From the NCBI GenBank assembly GCA_964408285.1, contig CAYOYV010000002.1, positions 110,590-174,589 on the forward strand: a stretch of DNA of 64,000 bases, read 5' to 3'. The position numbers and the translations under genes are program-made. Positions 38,627 to 46,622 of the stretch are shown here, piece after piece. The stretch's first letter is position 1, and each line of letters opens with the position of its first letter. Source of the stretch: an uncultured Nitrososphaerota archaeon (GTDB taxonomy: Archaea; Thermoproteota; EX4484-205; JAAOZO01). The notes beneath the pieces were generated by a model. The model was not told where the DNA came from and made no database searches. It saw nothing but the letters and a program-made list of their open reading frames with translations.

Positions 38627-39187
38627 TCACTCCAATGTGGCATGAAGTCTCAATATTACCTCTTCAGTGACCCCCTTCCTTTTCATGACTTCCGCCACGA
38701 CGCTGTCCAATGTCGATAGCGCGGCAATGTCGAATAGAGAAGTGAACGGAGCCGAGCTGCTCTTCTCAACCAGCCTTGTCTTTCCAGGTATCGAAACTAC
38801 GTGGTCCGCCATCTCTCCTATTCGGCTCTGCTTGTGGGCCGTCAGTACCACGACCACTCCACCCATCTCTTTCGCCTTTTTCACCAGGCAAGCCGTGGAT
38901 TCCGTTTTCCCGCTGCCAGATATCGCGACGAGTATATCTCCCCTGCCAAAGCTAGGGGTGAAGGTATCCCCAACAAAGAAAGCCGGGATTGCTATGTGAT
39001 TGAGCCTCTGAACGAAGGCCTTTATCATGAGCCCCGATCTTCCTGCTCCATAGGCGAACACCCTTTTGCTTCCCACAATCAATTCCACCAATTTCTCAAG
39101 CTGCGTTTCAGAGAGACTAGAGGCTAGGCCTGACATGTGCTTTGCTATCTCATCCAAGGAAATGCCTAACGTGATCAGTCTGTCCAT
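38627..39187 (-). CDS. SIS-domain sugar-phosphate isomerase (6-phospho-3-hexuloisomerase-like)
   Basis: VFAYGAGRSG...ISGSGKT SIS motifs. The size (186 aa) is typical of PHI/HxlB. Confidence 0.75.
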   Translation of the reverse strand: MDRLITLGISLDEIAKHMSGLASSLSETQLEKLVELIVGSKRVFAYGAGRSGLMIKAFVQRLNHIAIPAFFVGDTFTPSFGRGDILVAISGSGKTESTACLVKKAKEMGGVVVVLTAHKQSRIGEMADHVVSIPGKTRLVEKSSSAPFTSLFDIAALSTLDSVVAEVMKRKGVTEEVILRLHATLE

Positions 39188-39300
39188 TGTCTCATCTTTA
39201 TCGACGCAAGGGGAAATAACTCTTTAGGCACTAAATGCCGGCCATTCCCCTTGACCTCTGGTTCTGTGGGTCAAAAACCAACATAGGTGTTGTTGAGGGC

Positions 39301-40500
39301 TCACAATGCGGAGCCTTCACGAATGTCATGGACTGCCTTATTGATAATCCGTACGCCCTCCCTTATGTTCTCCACTGAATTTGCATAACTTATCCTTATG
39401 TAACCCTCACCATTTGAGCCCATAGCAGTTCCATGAAGGACCGCTACACCATATTTCTCCAAGATGAACCTCATGAGTCCCTCGCTGTTCATAATTCCAT
39501 TCTTTAGCACCTGCTTGACATTTACGAATCCATAGAATGCACCACGCGGTTTCACCATGGAAAGCTGCTTGGTTCTTTCTATTTCCTCCATCAGGACATT
39601 CCTCCTTTGCTGATAGGTTCTTACCATCTCGTAAACAGGTTCCATAGGCCCCTCTAGCGCCGCTATGCCTCCCCTCTGAACAAACATGCTCACACAAGAT
39701 GTCATGAGATTGAGAATCTTGGTCGTGAAGGGCAGAAGATACTTCGGCACTATCATGTAGCCCAATCTCCACCCAGTCATGGCATATCCTTTCGAGAAGC
39801 CGTCCAGTATGATTGTCCTTTCAAGGTTAGGATCGAATTCCGCAGGGGAGCAATTCCTCGTTCCGTCATAGATCAGGTACTTATAGATTTCATCCGAGAT
39901 GACGTAGATGCCTTTCTCCCTGGCCAATTCCGTTATCCCTTTCACATCCTCCTTTGTTAGCACGGAACCAGTCGGGTTCTCCGGTGAATTCAGCACGATT
40001 GCCTTTGTTTTTCCAGTGATCAATTTGCTGACCTCCTGAGCCGTCATTCTGAATTCGTTCCCTTCCCTGAGTTTGACCGATACAGGCCTACCGTGGAAGA
40101 ATTTTGTCGCGCCTTGATAAGCAGGATAACCAGGGTTAGGCAATATCACCTCGTCCCCTTGCTCTAGGACGGAAGCCAGGGCAGCAAATACTCCCTCCTT
40201 TGCACCAACCGTTACCAATACATTTTCCCTCCAGTTGAGATCTATGCCAAGATCTTGTTTTGTCTTCTTGGCAATGGATTCCCTGAGCTCAGGCAAGCCT
40301 GGCGTTGGAGTGTAGTGCGTCTCCCCTTTCCTCAAGGCCTCAATCGCGGCCTCTCTAATGTGAAGGGGTGTCACAAAATCAGGTTCTCCTATCTCCAAGT
40401 GAATGATCTTCTTTCCCTGGGCCTCCAATTCCTTTGCTTTACCCAATACGACGAAAGCGGATTCAGCACCTGCGTCGATGGCTCTCTTTGCAATGTCCAA
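39301..40500 (-). CDS. class I/II PLP-dependent aminotransferase (aspartate aminotransferase family)
   Basis: NPTG, the PLP-lysine region FSKGYAMTGWRLGY, and the overall fold-type I pattern. Confidence 0.9.
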   Translation of the reverse strand: MDIAKRAIDAGAESAFVVLGKAKELEAQGKKIIHLEIGEPDFVTPLHIREAAIEALRKGETHYTPTPGLPELRESIAKKTKQDLGIDLNWRENVLVTVGAKEGVFAALASVLEQGDEVILPNPGYPAYQGATKFFHGRPVSVKLREGNEFRMTAQEVSKLITGKTKAIVLNSPENPTGSVLTKEDVKGITELAREKGIYVISDEIYKYLIYDGTRNCSPAEFDPNLERTIILDGFSKGYAMTGWRLGYMIVPKYLLPFTTKILNLMTSCVSMFVQRGGIAALEGPMEPVYEMVRTYQQRRNVLMEEIERTKQLSMVKPRGAFYGFVNVKQVLKNGIMNSEGLMRFILEKYGVAVLHGTAMGSNGEGYIRISYANSVENIREGVRIINKAVHDIREGSAL

Positions 40501-40704
40501 GGTCTTCCTCTAGTGCAGTTATGGGCTATCTGGCTATTTGAATTCTATTAGGGATTCCCCTTTGGCACTCAGGACGGCCCTCTTTGGCATCGAGAACCTG
40601 ATTAGGGAGCAAATCGGTGAAATGACCCAGTAGAGCTGATTCAGCAGAGTCGCCCGGAAAAAAGGATGGTTCTATGTATTCGATCTCCCCAGACCTTTCA
40701 TATT

Positions 40705-40998
40705 TCACACTTGTGGTGTGCTGGTTTGTGTGCTTTCGCCACTGGATTCGATCTGAACCGCATAACTACCGTCAGGCTTCTTCCAGAACAATATCTCGTC
40801 TCCTGACTTTGCAATCTCGCTGAGTCCGAAGTAGATCCTGTTATACCTGTCAACTCTCTTGCTGAATTCGGCTGTGCCTACGACCAGCTTGAACGCACCA
40901 CGCGGAAATACCTTTACAGAATCGTTTGGCACACGAACAAAACCCTTTTGGACCTCTGAGGCAGTCAATTTCTTCCTGAGCACTATCTGGGCGCTCAT
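40705..40998 (-). CDS. stand-alone B3-like (EcoRII-N/plant B3 pseudobarrel) DNA-binding domain protein
   Basis: KKLTASEVQKGFVRVPNDSVKVFP and SGDEILFWK parallel the B3 consensus K.LT.SDV..L.IPK..AEK.FP and AGDVVSF. 97 aa with no catalytic domain. Confidence 0.5.
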   Translation of the reverse strand: MSAQIVLRKKLTASEVQKGFVRVPNDSVKVFPRGAFKLVVGTAEFSKRVDRYNRIYFGLSEIAKSGDEILFWKKPDGSYAVQIESSGESTQTSTPQV

Positions 40999-41209
40999 TC
41001 TAACGTCTGAGTGAGAATCGGGCTTTTAAAAACATTACATTCTCCCGCGATCACGGAGTCGTCGTTCAAAATATGAAGATACCAGACTACCACATGCGAT
41101 TCATTTTCCAAAGGCGCAAAATCGAATCTTGTAATAACTCCAGTCAACTGTCTGCTAAGGTTGTTAAACGGATTCGCCAGTTTGGTTCACTTGCGACCGA
41201 TCCGCGAAT

Positions 41210-42532
41210 ATGCGCCAGATTGCTGAACTGCTAACGAGGACACGCTTCGATGATTACTGGTCATTCTCCGATGCAACAAGGAAGGAAATATCGCGTCTCA
41301 CTCATAGCTATCATCGATACCCATCGAAGTTCATCCCGCAACTTTCGAACCGATTGATTAGCCAATATAGCGAACAGAACCAGACTGTATTGGACCCTTT
41401 CGTCGGTGGAGGCACTGCCTTAGTAGAAGGTATGCTCTTAGGACGCAGAGCAGTTGGGATAGATATCAATCCCATAGCATGCTTGATTTCGAGAGTGAAG
41501 ACAACTCCAATTTCGCCAAGCGTCCTTGAGGGCGAGTTCAATAAGATAATGACCAAGGTGCACGATCGCAGCAAAAACACCACCTTGGTGACACGTGCGT
41601 CCAGAACGGTGACATCTGACTTGGACATCAGCAGGATCCGTTACTGGTTTACTGATAGCTCGATAAGACATCTTTCGCTCATTCTGTCCGTGATAGACGA
41701 AGTGGAAGACCATAGGATTCGCGAATTCTCACTCTGCGCGTTTTCGCACATATTGAAGAATTGCTCCCTATGGAGCATGAGAAGCATAAAGCCAACACGT
41801 GACATGCACAAGAATATTCCGAACCCAATCAATACATTCCAGAAACACATGCTACATATGATTATGAAGAATCTGCAATTCGATGCCCTTCTCCCTCTCT
41901 CGGCAAAGGAGAATCTGGATGAGCATGTTAGAGTGGTGCAAGATGATTGTCGAAATGCTGCTGAGCACTGTCGGAATGCTTCGCTAATAGTGACGAGTCC
42001 TCCGTACGTTACCTCATATGAATATTTCTCCGTTCATCAATTGAGCGTGATGTGGCTTCATCCATCGATAAACTTCACGGAATACAAGAAGAAGTTCATC
42101 GGAATAAAGCACAAGCCTCTGCTAACTGAGCAATTGGCAAGCGAGACGGGCAGGAAACTCGTCCAACAGCTTTATTCGACGCCACATGCCGCTGTCAATG
42201 CTTATGCGAGGGCCGTTCAAACTTACTTTGCTGAGATGCAACAGGCGCTTTTGAAATTCAGAGAAGTCCTAAGACCAGGAGGTAAGATCTGCATTGTCAT
42301 AGGAAATACCTCCTACTACGGTGTCACTGTCAGAAATGCCGAAGTCATGGCAGAAACCTGCGATGCCTTGGGCTATGAGCTGCAATTCATCATAAAGAGA
42401 AGGGTTCCTCTAAGCGCCAAATTCCTACCTTCGGCTCGCGACCCACGAACGGGAAACTTCGTCTCATCCAAGGGAAACTCCAAAATCGCATATCCATACG
42501 AGTATATCCTGACTTTCTCAAAGAGAAACTAG
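41210..42532 (+). CDS. DNA methyltransferase (N4-cytosine/N6-adenine family, alpha-like motif order)
   Basis: SAM-binding motif I (VLDPFVGGGTALVEG) is near the N-terminus, catalytic motif IV (TSPPYVTSYEY) is at about residue 263, and LRPGGKICIVIG follows. Confidence 0.8.
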   Translation: MRQIAELLTRTRFDDYWSFSDATRKEISRLTHSYHRYPSKFIPQLSNRLISQYSEQNQTVLDPFVGGGTALVEGMLLGRRAVGIDINPIACLISRVKTTPISPSVLEGEFNKIMTKVHDRSKNTTLVTRASRTVTSDLDISRIRYWFTDSSIRHLSLILSVIDEVEDHRIREFSLCAFSHILKNCSLWSMRSIKPTRDMHKNIPNPINTFQKHMLHMIMKNLQFDALLPLSAKENLDEHVRVVQDDCRNAAEHCRNASLIVTSPPYVTSYEYFSVHQLSVMWLHPSINFTEYKKKFIGIKHKPLLTEQLASETGRKLVQQLYSTPHAAVNAYARAVQTYFAEMQQALLKFREVLRPGGKICIVIGNTSYYGVTVRNAEVMAETCDALGYELQFIIKRRVPLSAKFLPSARDPRTGNFVSSKGNSKIAYPYEYILTFSKRN

Positions 42533-42590: not shown

Positions 42591-43388
42591 CTAGGGTGTT
42601 CCCTTTGACTCGGCGACCTTTTCCTCCATTGCAACCTTCTCAGTAGGCTCTGGCTCCTCTCCCGGCTTCTTTTCCTCAGAGGCTTTTTCCTCAGATGGCT
42701 TTTCCTCTTTTTCCCTTTGGTATTCCTCTACGAATATTACTTTGTCTACTGATTTGAGGTATCTGCTGATGTCAGAGAACACAGCTCTCTTCAATACAGG
42801 AAGGCCCTCAACATAGAACATCTCTTGAGGCAGTTTTACGGTCACGATGGACTCGGAGATCTCAGCGGTTATGGCCCCCTCCTTCGGTTTTGGGAATCTC
42901 CTGTTAAGGATTGCATTCGCTTTTCCAAGATCGTCCTCGATCTTGCTGACCACTTTGAACGAATAAGTCAGAGTTTTACCTGCAAGGGGGGGATTGAAAT
43001 CCACGCTAACTCTACCAGAGCTTATTGTCTTTATTGTCCCTATCTTCCCATCTATATCGACCCTTGCCCCGACATCCAAATTCTTCACGCCTGCGAATTT
43101 CCTTATCGGATAGACCCTGACCTTCGTTGGATCCCTTTGCCCGTATCCCTCCTCTGGTGCCACATTGATTTCGTATTGTTCGTTCACAGTGGCCTCCTTC
43201 AGCCTGTTCTCCAGGCCCTTTGGTATTCCCCCAGCACCCAATATGAACAGCCTGGGTTCATACGCCTGACGTTCATCAAAGCCCTTCATCTCCTTTGCAG
43301 TGTCCGCGTTCGTCGTATCAACCAGTTCGCCCGTTTCTTGCACTTTTGCCGTGAAATCAACCAGGAGAAATGAGCCCTCTTCGTTCAT
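42591..43388 (-). CDS. long-type archaeal FKBP peptidyl-prolyl cis-trans isomerase
   Basis: FKBP domain with IF insert, followed by a C-terminal domain and an acidic Lys/Glu-rich tail. The pattern matches archaeal FKBP26-like proteins. Confidence 0.85.
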   Translation of the reverse strand: MNEEGSFLLVDFTAKVQETGELVDTTNADTAKEMKGFDERQAYEPRLFILGAGGIPKGLENRLKEATVNEQYEINVAPEEGYGQRDPTKVRVYPIRKFAGVKNLDVGARVDIDGKIGTIKTISSGRVSVDFNPPLAGKTLTYSFKVVSKIEDDLGKANAILNRRFPKPKEGAITAEISESIVTVKLPQEMFYVEGLPVLKRAVFSDISRYLKSVDKVIFVEEYQREKEEKPSEEKASEEKKPGEEPEPTEKVAMEEKVAESKGTP

Positions 43389-44168: not shown

Positions 44169-45485
44169 TCAAGGATTCCCAGGTTTTGGAGTTCCCCCTG
44201 GCCGGATTCTTGCAGTGTCCTTGACGCCGAATGCAAGTAACGTTCCTAGGACATAAAGCAAAGCTGCTGATATATAGAGTGCTGTATAGCCCAAGTTCGA
44301 TGACTGGGCATTGAAGTAGTCAAGCATGAACCCACCCATCCCAGCCAATACGCCTGAACCAGCAGTTGCGATGTTCGAAATTCCAAGATAACGCCCACCT
44401 GATTCAGAAGGAATCAGGTCAGCGCCCCAAGCCCAATTCACGCTCAAGAAGATTCCAGCACTAATTCCGATAAGACTCCCAAAAATCAGGACTTGATCCA
44501 ATGTGGTGGCGGTGATCAGCAGTAATGCCCCTATCGCACCAAGTACGCCCGAGAGGATGATGAACCATTTCCTGCCCCACCTGTCGCTCAACGCACCTGA
44601 AGGATAGACAACCACCGCGATCGTAATGGCTATGACAGCAAGCAGACTGCCAACGGCACTGGCCGGATTCGGCAAACCAAGCACATCCCTGAGGAAATAA
44701 AGTGCATAGTTGCGCACGAGATTGCTCGCCGTTATGATAACAAGGCGCGAAATCATCCATAGGAAAAAGTGCTTGCTATGGAAGAGACTCGCCAGAGAAT
44801 CGCGAAGCGTACTCGAGCTGGGCCCCTGCATTGTTGATTTGGGCTGGATCTTGGGAGCTCCATCGAAAGGTTGCTCGGTTACAAATATCGCAGTAACCGC
44901 CATTGAGAAGAGGAGAAAGAAAATGATCGTCAGAAATGCGATCAGTATCTGTCCCTGTCCGATTAGATAGCCCATAATGAGAGACGTAACGATCATGCCT
45001 GCTATCTCCAAGAACTGCTTGACACCAGTTACAGCTCCTCGCTTCCTCTCTGGGACCAGCTCGGGGATGTAGCCCTGATACGGCCCATGAGCTATATTGG
45101 AAGAGGTTTGTAGAAGCAAGTAGGCAGCAAGCAGCACCAAATAATCTCCGGAATAGGCCATGGCCAGCAGGAAGATAACATCGAAGAGGGTGCCGCCGAC
45201 GATGTAAGGGCGTCTGCGTCCCCAACGTGTTGTGCGTGTGTCGCTCCACGCGCCGGCAACAGGTTGCACTACTATTGCGACGATCAGACCCAGCGCAGAA
45301 ATCATGCCTAGGGCACCTCCCTTTTGCGACTCGGGAACCAGTAGCGGGACAAGAGTTGGTAGAATGATTGGCCCCATCGAATTCCAAAGGAATGAAAGAG
45401 AGAACCAATAGACATTGAGGATCAGATAGTCCAGCAAGCGCAATGGATGAGAGGCAATGCTGCCTTTCTGGTCACCGGTGCTCAT
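44169..45485 (-). CDS. MFS transporter
   Basis: 12 TM helices. The start was set at MSTGDQ. The 84-codon N-terminal extension of the ORF overlaps rtcA and is not hydrophobic. Confidence 0.8.
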   Translation of the reverse strand: MSTGDQKGSIASHPLRLLDYLILNVYWFSLSFLWNSMGPIILPTLVPLLVPESQKGGALGMISALGLIVAIVVQPVAGAWSDTRTTRWGRRRPYIVGGTLFDVIFLLAMAYSGDYLVLLAAYLLLQTSSNIAHGPYQGYIPELVPERKRGAVTGVKQFLEIAGMIVTSLIMGYLIGQGQILIAFLTIIFFLLFSMAVTAIFVTEQPFDGAPKIQPKSTMQGPSSSTLRDSLASLFHSKHFFLWMISRLVIITASNLVRNYALYFLRDVLGLPNPASAVGSLLAVIAITIAVVVYPSGALSDRWGRKWFIILSGVLGAIGALLLITATTLDQVLIFGSLIGISAGIFLSVNWAWGADLIPSESGGRYLGISNIATAGSGVLAGMGGFMLDYFNAQSSNLGYTALYISAALLYVLGTLLAFGVKDTARIRPGGTPKPGNP

Positions 45486-45593
45486 TCTCCCCCGAAGCCC
45501 AGTATGGGAGTTTAAAAAGCGAGGGTCAATTCGAAGAAGTTCACCTCGAAATGGCCCAAATCTTATCAGGCGGATACGGAGATCTGAATTGAC

Positions 45594-46622
45594 TTGATAG
45601 AGATCGACGGATCTTACGGTGAGGGAGGGGGACAGCTTGTGAGGATGGCCCTGGCCTTTTCCTCCATTTTCGCAGAACCGATAAGAATTTTCAACATAAG
45701 GGCCAGAAGAAGCAATCCAGGTATAAGACCACAGCATCTTGCCGCGATAAGGTCAGTGATCATGATCTCGGGAGGAAAAGTCGACGGAGCGCATGTGGGC
45801 TCATCGATCCTAGGATACTTCCCAGAAAGGCCGGTGGGCGGGAAATTCAGCTTAGATATTGGAACAGCAGGAAGCGTCGCAATGGTCCTGCAGGCCTTGC
45901 TTCCAATCTCCCTAATGGCCGAAAAAGAGGTGACTGGGATAATCAGAGGAGGCACAGAAGTCCCATGGAGCCCCACAGTGGACTATTTCGATGAGGTGTT
46001 CCTGAAAGCAGTAAGGAGAATGGGAGCGCAAATACGTCTGAAGCTTCTCAGAAGTGGATACTACCCGAAGGGGGGCGGCTTGGTTGAGTTCAAAGTGGAA
46101 CCATCCAAGGAATTAGGCGGCCTCGATCTCATCGATTTCCCCAAGCGGACATGGGTGAAAGGCATAAGCAGATCCCACAATCTTCCTCAGTCAGTTTCGG
46201 AGAGGCAGTCAAACGCTGCGCGGAAGTATCTTGAATCACGAGGAATCGAGGTCGAGGCAATCCAAACATTATCTGGAAAAGAAGCGCTCGGACCCGGCAG
46301 CAGCATAACGCTATGGGCAAGCGGGACTTCAGAGCTATACGTTGGAGGTGATGCATTGGGCGAAAGAGGAAAACCCTCCGAAAAGGTTGGCGAAGAGTCC
46401 GCTGGAATGATTTGGCGTTATCTGGAATCGAAGGCGCCGGTTGACGAGCATGTTGCTGACATGCTGCTCCCCTATCTTGTCCTGGCAAAGGGACAGTCAA
46501 GGATGAGGATCTCAAATCCTACTCAGCATCTCCTCACTGAGATTCATGTTGCTAATCTATTTGGAAAGACCAATGTTTCGCTGACTGAGGACGAAACTCC
46601 GACGCTAATAGTGAGTGCTTAA
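45594..46622 (+). CDS. rtcA: RNA 3'-terminal phosphate cyclase
   Basis: The GEGGGQ-containing N-terminus, overall length and RtcA motif pattern are present. The active-site His region is present (GPGSSITLWASG... H). Confidence 0.9.
   Translation: MIEIDGSYGEGGGQLVRMALAFSSIFAEPIRIFNIRARRSNPGIRPQHLAAIRSVIMISGGKVDGAHVGSSILGYFPERPVGGKFSLDIGTAGSVAMVLQALLPISLMAEKEVTGIIRGGTEVPWSPTVDYFDEVFLKAVRRMGAQIRLKLLRSGYYPKGGGLVEFKVEPSKELGGLDLIDFPKRTWVKGISRSHNLPQSVSERQSNAARKYLESRGIEVEAIQTLSGKEALGPGSSITLWASGTSELYVGGDALGERGKPSEKVGEESAGMIWRYLESKAPVDEHVADMLLPYLVLAKGQSRMRISNPTQHLLTEIHVANLFGKTNVSLTEDETPTLIVSA

Follow-up and report, generated by a model that had tools for sequence, protein, structure and literature searches.

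What a free-standing protein of predicted B3-like fold does beside a DNA methyltransferase gene is the question that this locus raises. Prokaryotic examples of the B3/EcoRII-N fold are known solely from modules that form part of restriction enzymes, and plant B3 proteins form a large family of transcription factors whose origin is debated. Control of restriction-modification (R-M) genes is currently explained by helix-turn-helix (HTH) C proteins, HTH-methyltransferase fusions, promoter methylation and antisense RNA (PMC12707154). A first-pass annotation of the stretch of archaeal DNA analysed here (64 kb, hereafter the window) had described a 97-aa B3-like protein encoded divergently from a DNA methyltransferase, and had read it either as the remnant of a degraded Type IIE restriction enzyme or as a B3-type controller or specificity factor.

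Genomic organization and conservation of the locus

The 97-aa and 440-aa open reading frames were found head-to-head, separated by the 211-bp spacer, exactly where the first-pass annotation had placed them (Table 1). The lower end of the range assigned to the feature holds only a 60-aa open reading frame, which we do not regard as a gene, since Pfam and NCBIfam gave no match for it and since indels of 1 and 13 nt disrupt it in a close relative with 93% identity in the B3 protein. The ~200 bp from the B3 gene to the next housekeeping gene are non-coding and indel-bearing.

Table 1. Features of the divergent B3-methyltransferase locus, in window coordinates.
Feature	Position	Strand	Basis
Intergenic DNA between the B3 gene and the aminotransferase gene, outside the feature	40526-40704	.	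60-aa open reading frame rejected as a gene
Small B3-type gene, 97 aa	40705-40998	-	Open reading frame as read earlier, confirmed
Divergent intergenic spacer, 211 bp, with both putative promoters	40999-41209	.	Open reading frame limits; alignment with four relatives
Conserved block GGGAGAATGTAATGTTTTTAAA, with TATA-like TTTTTAAAA ending 25 nt upstream of the B3 ATG	41025-41046	-	Mean pairwise identity 0.82
Conserved non-coding block, 54 bp, 38-91 bp upstream of the methyltransferase ATG: AAATCGAATCTTGTAATAACTCCAGTCAACTGTCTGCTAAGGTTGTTAAACGGA	41119-41172	.	Alignment with four relatives
DNA methyltransferase gene, 440 aa	41210-42532	+	Open reading frame as read earlier, confirmed

The pair is flanked by genes for an aminotransferase and for FKBP26. 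The same two housekeeping genes enclose it in all relatives, and the divergent arrangement is kept in every relative with enough sequence. Because all close relatives share one syntenic locus, the arrangement represents a single evolutionary event, and within this clade the methyltransferase gene has been inherited vertically between its housekeeping neighbours. Between most relatives, synonymous substitutions have reached saturation; the small gene evolves under strong purifying selection, with a dN/dS of 0.07-0.11, and the methyltransferase gene is likewise under purifying selection. The earlier statement that no restriction endonuclease lies near the pair held up: the neighbours are the two housekeeping genes, and a hidden Markov model (HMM) of the BsaWI-family endonucleases that partner homologous methyltransferases detected neither such an enzyme nor a remnant of one in the whole window. 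A search of the window for rRNA and tRNA genes likewise returned none.

The small protein is predicted to adopt a B3-type fold

The 97-aa protein is basic (pI 9.7), and its last ~10 residues are predicted to be disordered, leaving a structured part of ~85 residues. AF2 models of the window protein (pLDDT 82) and of a relative with 29% identity to it (P0015; pLDDT 85) both depict a single-chain open beta-barrel of seven strands, with B3 topology and two short helices. Foldseek comparison of the models agrees with a B3-type pseudobarrel, the scores for B3-type structures being about double those for MraZ or PHS018 in both cases. The two models and Foldseek together bear out, as a prediction, the pseudobarrel without a nuclease domain that had been proposed. 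The accompanying claim of a close match to the B3/EcoRII-N consensus fails at the sequence-profile level: neither PF02362 (B3) nor PF09217 (EcoRII-N) matched the window protein or its 22 relatives at E ≤ 1, and a profile of the 23-member family found no B3 protein among PDB sequences. Searches against Pfam, NCBIfam, PADLOC, PHROGs and PDB sequences, with the protein alone or with the family profile, returned nothing meaningful, a TRADD-like_N match (E 0.04) being discarded as noise. No HTH profile matched the small protein, whose predicted structure is nearly all beta. We regard it as a predicted B3-fold protein, an assignment that rests on modelled structures and has no sequence-profile link.

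The most conserved positions in the family, D50 (nearly invariant) and R54 (invariant), sit in the beta4-beta5 hairpin, which is placed at the C-arm position by secondary-structure order only. In BfiI-C and EcoRII-N, the corresponding hairpin is the base-contacting C-arm (PMC3973309). The placement of these residues and the basic character of the protein make it plausible that it binds DNA.

EcoRII-N, BfiI-C, UbaLAI-N, R.NgoAVII-C and LlaJI.R1-N belong as domains to enzymes of 160-400 aa, in which they are joined to PD-(D/E)XK, PLD or AAA+ modules. In contrast, the window family is free-standing (81-126 aa) and devoid of a catalytic domain, is ~20-70 residues shorter than these modules and has no detectable sequence-profile similarity to them. 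Plant B3 domains (FUS3, LEC2, RAV1/TEM1, VRN1, ARF) are eukaryotic and always lie within larger multidomain factors, and the window protein shows 12-19% identity to them, with PF02362 silent.

A rare family of free-standing relatives

The family is very rare, with 24 matches among 1.8 billion representatives, 19 of which are small stand-alone proteins. Each member has its own start and stop, and these are conserved. Long multi-stretch matches obtained in an exhaustive HMM search (P0008, P0013, P0016, P0024 and P0026) are repetitive or Ig-like and were treated as false positives. Scans of genome contigs and three scans of viral contigs yielded no further family loci, a scan of metagenome contigs recovered nothing beyond the same organism and a single relative already known, and no tblastn match among plasmids and phages was credible. 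The lineages that carry the family are uncultured and probably archaeal. No Pfam, NCBIfam, PHROGs or PADLOC model covers the family, and such genes are therefore currently annotated as hypothetical or not called.

In six of the seven independent gene contexts, family members adjoin restriction enzymes (of the HinP1I or ThaI families) and/or DNA methyltransferases. At locus L008 the B3 gene lies 87 bp directly upstream of a HinP1I-family endonuclease gene, the classical position of a C gene, with a convergent methyltransferase gene. Loci L014 and L017 share the order putative methyltransferase, B3, B3, HinP1I-family endonuclease; a ThaI-family endonuclease at L019 has four B3 paralogues around it; and at L007 a 647-aa methyltransferase, of the same permuted type as that of the window, is followed by a B3 gene. 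Two to four tandem B3 copies occur in some loci, and the B3 genes closely flank endonuclease genes, at times overlapping them. One family member, at L010, has no recognizable R-M neighbour. The partner methyltransferases are permuted, beta-type or gamma-like, and the partner endonucleases HinP1I-like or ThaI-like. Because these rare relatives lie mostly in R-M clusters, the small protein may be a non-HTH regulator of R-M genes.

A tRNA-like appearance of the L014 and L017 spacer was not confirmed. On a Halomicrobium plasmid, two 97-aa open reading frames diverge from the gene for a homologous methyltransferase; they are not family members, and were rejected as a parallel case.

The methyltransferase and its homologues

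The methyltransferase carries the motifs attributed to it, DPFVGGGT at residues 62-69 (motif I) and TSPPY at residues 262-266 (motif IV), of which the SPPY portion suggests N4-cytosine methylation. It matches PF01555 (N6_N4_Mtase) with an E-value of 1.2e-19 and 71.6 bits, against a cut-off of 26.7 bits, and one window protein, which we infer to be this enzyme, matches PADLOC MTase_II (E 3.2e-52). The enzyme is permuted relative to TTHA0409, and since its N-terminal part aligns to the C-terminal part of the PF01555 profile, it is circularly permuted with respect to the beta class. An insert of ~190 aa between motifs I and IV, which homologues lacking a B3 partner also conserve, probably forms the target-recognition region.

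The enzyme has more than 3000 homologues. A BsaWI-family endonuclease is encoded directly downstream, at a gap of 2-16 bp, in 62 of the 63 homologues that have a short gene there, and the window methyltransferase is 39-44% identical to those upstream of BsaWI-family endonucleases. Identity falls at 28% for plasmid methyltransferases paired with MvaI/BcnI-family endonucleases, and other homologues are linked to Type IIG restriction enzymes. The PF01555 match, the motifs and the R-M linkage of homologues uphold the identification of the neighbour as an R-M-type DNA methyltransferase, this linkage suggesting that DNA is its substrate. The methyltransferases of BsaWI-type (W/CCGGW) and MvaI/BcnI-type R-M systems share the permuted motif order and TSPPY with the window enzyme, which differs in having neither an endonuclease nor a second methyltransferase beside it and in sitting between housekeeping genes. 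Linkage to a cognate endonuclease, present among the homologues, is absent from the window and from close relatives, and the window enzyme is therefore an orphan.

Xre-type HTH proteins account for 8 of the 22 small open reading frames found immediately upstream in 80 homologous methyltransferase loci. On a Liquorilactobacillus plasmid, a homologous methyltransferase gene diverges from genes for an HTH regulator and an MvaI/BcnI endonuclease, and in others a MerR/HTH_17 domain is fused to the N terminus of the methyltransferase. In reference genomes, a B3 gene adjoins none of the 80 closest homologues of the enzyme.

Candidate control elements in the divergent spacer

Alignment with the relatives delimits two conserved blocks in the spacer. 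The 54-bp block has a mean pairwise identity of 0.82, against 0.26-0.45 in the flanking spacer, at a divergence at which synonymous sites are saturated. Its invariant core reads TGGAGTTA on the B3 strand, and the window has no second copy of its 33-bp core (41127-41159). We consider this block a candidate operator and/or methyltransferase promoter; inspection of it for a clear palindrome, dyad symmetry or a C-box-like repeat found none. A small open reading frame was rejected on account of its non-conserved start codon and frame, and an RNA element or riboswitch for want of an Rfam match or a consensus structure. The shorter block, judged by the general features of archaeal promoters, is probably an archaeal-type promoter of the small gene that yields a leaderless or near-leaderless mRNA. 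Motif comparison across the loci of distant family members gave a single weak lead, GAGTTAWT, an invariant core that recurs once more in the window, at 39215, in another promoter region.

A putative regulator of R-M genes and its alternatives

We favour the explanation, to which we give an even chance of being right, that the 97-aa protein is a B3-fold, sequence-specific dsDNA-binding protein serving as a dedicated transcriptional regulator of the adjacent R-M gene or genes, and that the pair survives as an orphan methyltransferase with its regulator. The small protein would be made from the TATA-type promoter 25 nt upstream of its own ATG and would bind the 54-bp block in the shared divergent control region, thereby setting the level of methyltransferase transcription and possibly also that of its own gene. 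It would fill the role played in homologous systems by HTH C proteins or N-terminal HTH fusions, and the endonuclease of the ancestral R-M unit would be absent here, leaving the orphan methyltransferase and the regulator. Gene context and conservation are the grounds on which DNA binding, the block as binding site and the direction of regulation are proposed. Of the two roles joined in the first-pass annotation, that of a controller is the best fit, given the R-M context and the HTH genes or fusions at the equivalent place; that of a specificity factor is less likely, because family members pair with unrelated methyltransferase architectures.

The small protein resembles C proteins (C.PvuII, C.AhdI, C.Esp1396I, C.Kpn2I) in being encoded by a small gene inside R-M clusters. 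The C-gene position directly upstream of an endonuclease is seen at L008; L014, L017 and L019 are R-M clusters, and the window holds a methyltransferase only. Beside homologous methyltransferases, Xre-type HTH genes take up this same place. In some divergent R-M units the C protein acts at the methyltransferase promoter, and the window B3 gene diverges from its methyltransferase like those units (PMC12707154). C proteins, however, are Xre-type HTH dimers that occupy C-box inverted repeats, whereas the window protein is a predicted beta-barrel without an HTH or an evident C-box; the conserved 54-bp block is present, but lies nearer the methyltransferase gene and lacks clear dyad symmetry. They differ further in that the window family has tandem copies in some loci and that the window locus has no endonuclease to control.

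Several observations count against a regulator. The 54-bp block could be no more than a core promoter for the methyltransferase, C proteins do not typically come as two to four tandem paralogues, the L010 member has no recognizable R-M neighbour and the nearest methyltransferase homologues (0 of 80) have no B3 neighbour. The divergent arrangement, moreover, stands for one evolutionary event, and the fold is assigned from predicted structures with no sequence profile tying the family to B3 or EcoRII-N.

An unlikely but credible alternative is that the free B3 protein is a trans-acting recognition or effector subunit of a split EcoRII/BfiI/NgoAVII-type enzyme, which binds the target and activates, inhibits or tethers a nuclease or methyltransferase; the window protein would then act together with the methyltransferase or survive as a leftover of such a system. 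All characterized prokaryotic instances of the B3-like fold are recognition or effector modules of restriction enzymes, and the close, at times overlapping, placement of family genes beside endonuclease genes, in several copies, accords with such a subunit. Against it, the clade of the window has no adjacent endonuclease and yet keeps the small gene under strong purifying selection, the methyltransferase has its own ~190-aa insert, conserved where there is no B3 partner, and a conserved protein-protein interface is unlikely across unrelated endonuclease and methyltransferase families. As the partners come from different enzyme families, a regulator acting through a DNA operator fits better than a protein cofactor.

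It is improbable that the protein is instead a general small DNA-binding protein or transcription factor, perhaps nucleoid-associated or a reader of methylation marks, whose adjacency to the methyltransferase is an accident of co-acquisition. The stability of the pair between the aminotransferase and FKBP26 genes in all relatives, the second GAGTTAWT core at 39215 and the L010 member point in that direction; the R-M clusters in six of seven independent contexts point away from it, as does the extremely rare and patchy distribution of the family, which is unlike that of a core chromatin protein.

We hold it very improbable that the protein is an AbrB/MazE swapped-hairpin antitoxin-like protein that neutralizes or represses a toxic endonuclease, its B3 likeness being a partial similarity of fold. 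Partial similarity between AbrB-type and B3-type folds is recorded in SCOP, and the family shares with AbrB/MazE/SpoVT and MraZ proteins weak profile matches (in 3 of 23 members), a motif resembling (D)xxGRI...GDxI and the character of small basic regulators. The AbrB/MazE profile PF04014, however, has no match to the window protein, the models are single-chain seven-strand barrels and not ~50-aa dimerizing hairpins, both of them score about twice as well against B3-type structures as against MraZ or PHS018, and no toxin or endonuclease partner was found in the window.

The Type IIE remnant proposed earlier, an EcoRII-like enzyme with a decayed nuclease domain, is scarcely tenable: the prokaryotic B3 fold is otherwise fused to nucleases and, by comparison with homologous systems, an endonuclease has evidently disappeared from the locus, but the family is uniformly free-standing with its own conserved starts and stops, the small gene evolves at dN/dS 0.07-0.11, its reading frame stops after the barrel and is followed before the next gene by only ~200 bp of indel-bearing non-coding DNA with no family match and no conservation in frame, and the endonucleases associated with this methyltransferase family (BsaWI, MvaI/BcnI, Type IIG) contain no B3 domain and are encoded on the far side of the methyltransferase gene.

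If the regulator reading is correct, a free-standing prokaryotic B3 regulator would connect the restriction-enzyme modules with the plant factors, and a beta-barrel controller would represent a new solution to R-M control, with new operators to seek, especially in archaea, where R-M control has hardly been studied. Our broader proposal is tentative, and we rate its chances as somewhat worse than even: that the family is an undescribed class of non-HTH R-M controllers and comprises the first autonomous prokaryotic B3 transcription factors, possibly the source state of EcoRII/BfiI-type recognition domains and plant B3 factors, kept here with an orphan, possibly CCWGG-specific methyltransferase as a small unit of epigenetic regulation. 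No pentamer is more depleted in the 64-kb window than CCWGG, and this depletion serves as a lead only to that possible specificity. With its ~85 structured residues, the protein also offers an attractive minimal B3 scaffold for studies of structure and specificity.

Organization of the B3-methyltransferase locus

Both open reading frames described in the first-pass annotation were recovered with the reported positions, lengths and orientations, separated by 211 bp (see table). The methyltransferase start was placed at 41210 because a stop codon lies in frame at 41165-41167. A public NCBI-sourced gene call makes both genes shorter (by window 41210-41389 and 40984-40998), yielding a 380-aa methyltransferase (protein record P0028) and a 92-aa small protein; if its stop is identical, P0028 lacks about the first 60 residues and with them the invariant YHRYPSKFIP motif. 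The pair is flanked by housekeeping genes of archaeal character, with 58 bp between the methyltransferase stop and the FKBP26 gene, and farther ORFs resemble NMN adenylyltransferase, RNA cyclase and proteasome beta subunit on reading of their translations. GC content is slightly lower in the pair (0.45-0.48) than in the flanks (0.49-0.52). A 60-aa ORF reaching down to 40526 has no family match, and was set aside as intergenic DNA because a close relative, with a B3 protein 93% identical to that of the window, has indels of 1 and 13 nt there. Among mechanically listed ORFs, an MFS-transporter ORF (44169-45737) and the divergent RNA-cyclase ORF (45594-46622) overlap by ~140 bp at their 5' ends, and the true transporter start probably lies downstream of the listed one.

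Features of the B3-methyltransferase locus in the window and gene order at loci of relatives (L numbers)
Feature or locus	Coordinates	Strand	Description
Class I/II aminotransferase	39301-40500		Pfam
B3 gene	40705-40998	-	97-aa ORF
Conserved island	41025-41046		Contains TTTTTAAAA, ending 25 nt upstream of B3 ATG
Conserved block, 54 bp	41119-41172		38-91 bp upstream of methyltransferase ATG
Methyltransferase gene	41210-42532	+	440-aa ORF
FKBP26	42591-43388		Pfam
L001, L003			FKBP26, methyltransferase, then divergent B3
L005			Methyltransferase fragment, then divergent B3
L004			B3, then aminotransferase
L007			647-aa methyltransferase of same permuted type, 74 bp, then B3
L008/L009			B3 ~86 bp upstream of HinP1I-family endonuclease; convergent beta-class methyltransferase
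L014-16 and L017-18			708-715 aa protein, two tandem B3 paralogues, HinP1I-family endonuclease
L019-21			ThaI-family endonuclease with four B3 paralogues around

Predicted fold and family of the small protein

Searches of Pfam, NCBIfam, PADLOC, PHROGs and PDB sequences returned no significant match to the small protein. Neither B3 (PF02362) nor EcoRII-N (PF09217) appeared even at E <= 1 for the window protein and 22 relatives, and the close match to the B3/EcoRII-N consensus noted at first pass was thus not reproducible as a profile match. An AlphaFold2 model built from five sequences (pLDDT 82) has the secondary-structure order b-a-b-a-b-b-b-b-b and a disordered tail from residue 88, and a Foldseek search with this model gave 22 B3-type matches, below which there was a sharp fall to noise. 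The B3-type fold is assignable from this predicted structure, not from sequence; an assignment to the AbrB/MraZ or PUA folds, which at first pass was named as the outcome that would count against it, was not obtained. The protein is basic (pI 9.7), and in the family alignment R54 never varies and P32, F36 and D50 hardly do, with D50 and R54 mapping to the b4-b5 hairpin of the predicted model. Its counterpart in BfiI-C and EcoRII-N, the C-arm, uses a (D/E)xR motif to read the 3' half-site (PMC3973309); mapped by secondary-structure order only, the D50/R54 hairpin would correspond to this arm.

A word-indexed search identified four close homologues, at 66-93% BLASTP identity, and an HMM run exhaustively over 1.84 billion representatives gave 24 matches at E <= 1e-3. 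Nineteen matches stand alone as proteins of 65-126 aa, most often 85-100; five were treated as false positives, being repetitive, Ig-like or otherwise unrelated. None of the family libraries has a model for these free-standing B3 proteins.

Genomic contexts of the B3 family

The close relatives share one syntenic locus with the window, and the arrangement in L001, L003, L004, L005 and the window is a single, vertically inherited one. Distant family members define six further independent contexts (L007, L008-09, L014-16, L017-18, L019-21 and L010-13), so that restriction-modification (R-M) clusters constitute six of the seven independent contexts, with partner enzymes from different families. 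The L007 methyltransferase is 22% identical to that of the window (E 9e-13), the B3 gene of L008/L009 occupies the classical C-gene position of systems governed by C proteins (HTH controllers of R-M systems), and the 708-715 aa protein of L014-16 and L017-18 has weak Eco57I/TaqI_C similarity. The window holds one B3 copy; tandem paralogues occur at L019:1755-3608 (four, one without a gene call in the source), L014:4069-4685 and L017:3816-4421 (two each).

In these two-copy loci a GC-rich element, conserved between L014:4689-4800 and L017:4425-4540, separates the endonuclease gene from the second B3 copy; on the minus strand the element terminates in ...GGCGGCGCCA and is tRNA-like in look, with no ARAGORN or Rfam match. 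Dense short ORFs without family matches, together with RHH, HTH and MazE-like genes, fill L008:1-12267; this locus has the look of an archaeal plasmid, virus or integrated element and is unmatched in the viral contig collection.

An orphan methyltransferase of restriction-modification type

The window methyltransferase has >3000 homologues at E <= 1e-3. GTDB species representatives contain 427 relatives, the best 80 of which (39-44% identical) span Bathyarchaeota, Heimdallarchaeota, DPANN, Methanosarcinales, CPR bacteria, Elusimicrobia and others. Such a patchy distribution is typical of mobile R-M genes. A gene of ~222 aa lies 0-40 bp downstream of the methyltransferase, or overlaps its stop, in 63 of these best 80 loci, and all but one of the 63 encode BsaWI-family endonucleases (PF18643), often followed by a second, small N6_N4 methyltransferase. 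BsaWI itself cleaves W/CCGGW (PMC4652773). This three-gene operon is seen among L027-L105 (e.g. L031:6001-8653) and is conserved in many archaeal and bacterial phyla; its endonucleases reach 81% identity even when the lineages are distant, which implies that it has recently spread widely by horizontal transfer. The closest outgroups of the methyltransferase (43-50% identity) lie downstream of a 1085-1246 aa Eco57I/MmeI-type Type IIG enzyme, and farther plasmid homologues (25-28% identity) are paired with MvaI/BcnI-family endonucleases.

An HMM of the BsaWI-family partners found no match in the window or the relatives' contigs. PADLOC Type II methyltransferase models match one window protein (best E 3.2e-52), which we infer to be the product of gene 41210-42532. 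Since its homologues are R-M-linked, Type II models match, and weak Trm11, Trm14 and RlmKL matches are confined to the shared SAM-binding motif, there is no support for the RNA- or protein-methylating kind of enzyme raised as a caveat at first pass; judged by these relationships, the window carries a genuine DNA methyltransferase of R-M type as an orphan.

The divergent spacer and a candidate operator

C proteins and HTH-methyltransferase fusions are two recognised modes of R-M control (PMC12707154). Xre-type HTH proteins account for 8 of the 22 small ORFs directly upstream of homologous methyltransferases, some homologues carry N-terminal MerR/HTH_17 fusions, and on a Liquorilactobacillus plasmid 108 bp separate the methyltransferase from a divergent HTH regulator, followed by the endonuclease. 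A B3-family gene is present in none of the 80 best homologous methyltransferase loci. By analogy, the predicted B3-fold protein of the window lineage is in the slot held elsewhere by HTH regulators.

When the spacer was aligned with those of four relatives, two conserved islands stood out, the remainder being unalignable. The B3-proximal island appears to be a TATA-type promoter of the archaeal kind, from which a nearly leaderless mRNA would be made. The 54-bp block has a mean pairwise identity of 0.82, versus 0.26-0.45 in the adjoining spacer, although the genes on either side are saturated at synonymous sites. The block has TGGAGTTA as its invariant core, and the 33-bp core at 41127-41159 has no second copy in the window. 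No conserved RNA structure (consensus energy -1.95 kcal/mol), Rfam match or clear dyad symmetry was found in the block; as an ORF it was rejected, its sole possible start being lost and the substitutions in L003 being non-synonymous. GAGTTAWT, from the invariant core, has two copies in the 64 kb (39215 and 41133), both intergenic, the former beginning 29 nt upstream of the ATG of gene 38627-39187; L007 has one, at L007:301, 118 bp upstream of the methyltransferase-B3 operon. The motif may be a shared binding site or merely promoter sequence, and is a weak lead because it could equally belong to a promoter.

Putative role of the B3 protein

The best-supported model, to which we give about an even chance, is that a predicted B3-fold, sequence-specific DNA-binding protein controls transcription of the adjoining R-M gene or genes. 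In the window it would act on the 54-bp block within the divergent control region, setting expression of the methyltransferase and possibly its own. Because the gene is strongly constrained without an adjacent endonuclease, its role in the window clade would be tied to the methyltransferase rather than to an endonuclease. Against this model, the family has tandem paralogues, which are unusual among C proteins, and the 54-bp block may be no more than a promoter.

A trans-acting recognition or effector subunit seems unlikely: partners range across unrelated endonuclease and methyltransferase families, which favours a DNA-operator-based regulator over a protein cofactor. Somewhat less probable again is a general DNA-binding factor or methylation reader unrelated to methyltransferase control; no R-M gene is recognisable among the B3 neighbours in L010-13, to be set beside the six R-M-linked contexts. 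Weak PF04014 (MazE/AbrB) matches occur in 3 of 23 relatives (best E 4.4e-4), and B3-type and AbrB-type folds are reportedly partly similar in SCOP; given the B3-type Foldseek matches, we consider an AbrB/MazE-like antitoxin improbable. The degraded Type IIE enzyme proposed at first pass is rejected as barely credible, with dN/dS of 0.07-0.11 against four relatives where estimable (synonymous sites being saturated in most B3-gene pairs and every methyltransferase pair), start and stop both kept in relatives, and neither room nor signal for a nuclease domain beside the gene in profile searches and in comparison of the downstream DNA with a close relative.

Neither the B3 fold nor its R-M association is new; what is new is the free-standing format of the B3 protein, its probable role as a regulator and its pairing with an orphan methyltransferase, the literature searched containing no account of free-standing B3-like proteins at R-M loci or of non-HTH C proteins.

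CCWGG depletion in the window

CCWGG is the most under-represented of the 512 strand-symmetric pentamers across the whole window (1-64000), with 86 observed where a maximal-order Markov model predicts 144 (z = -4.8; next pentamer z = -3.2). Synonymous-codon shuffles of the 58 called genes agree (80 observed versus a mean of 135.7, z = -5.6, none of 500 as low). Enrichment is seen in its one-step neighbours CTWGG/CCWAG and TCWGG/CCWGA, there is no depletion of WCCGGW in the window, and CCWGG is absent from the 211-bp spacer. Within the small sample that 64 kb represents, the pattern suggests that restriction or methylation in the lineage targets CCWGG, or once did. CCWGG is the target of MvaI-type systems and is described as the site recognised by the B3-like domains of EcoRII and UbaLAI; a CCWGG-specific methyltransferase is, on these analogies, a testable guess.
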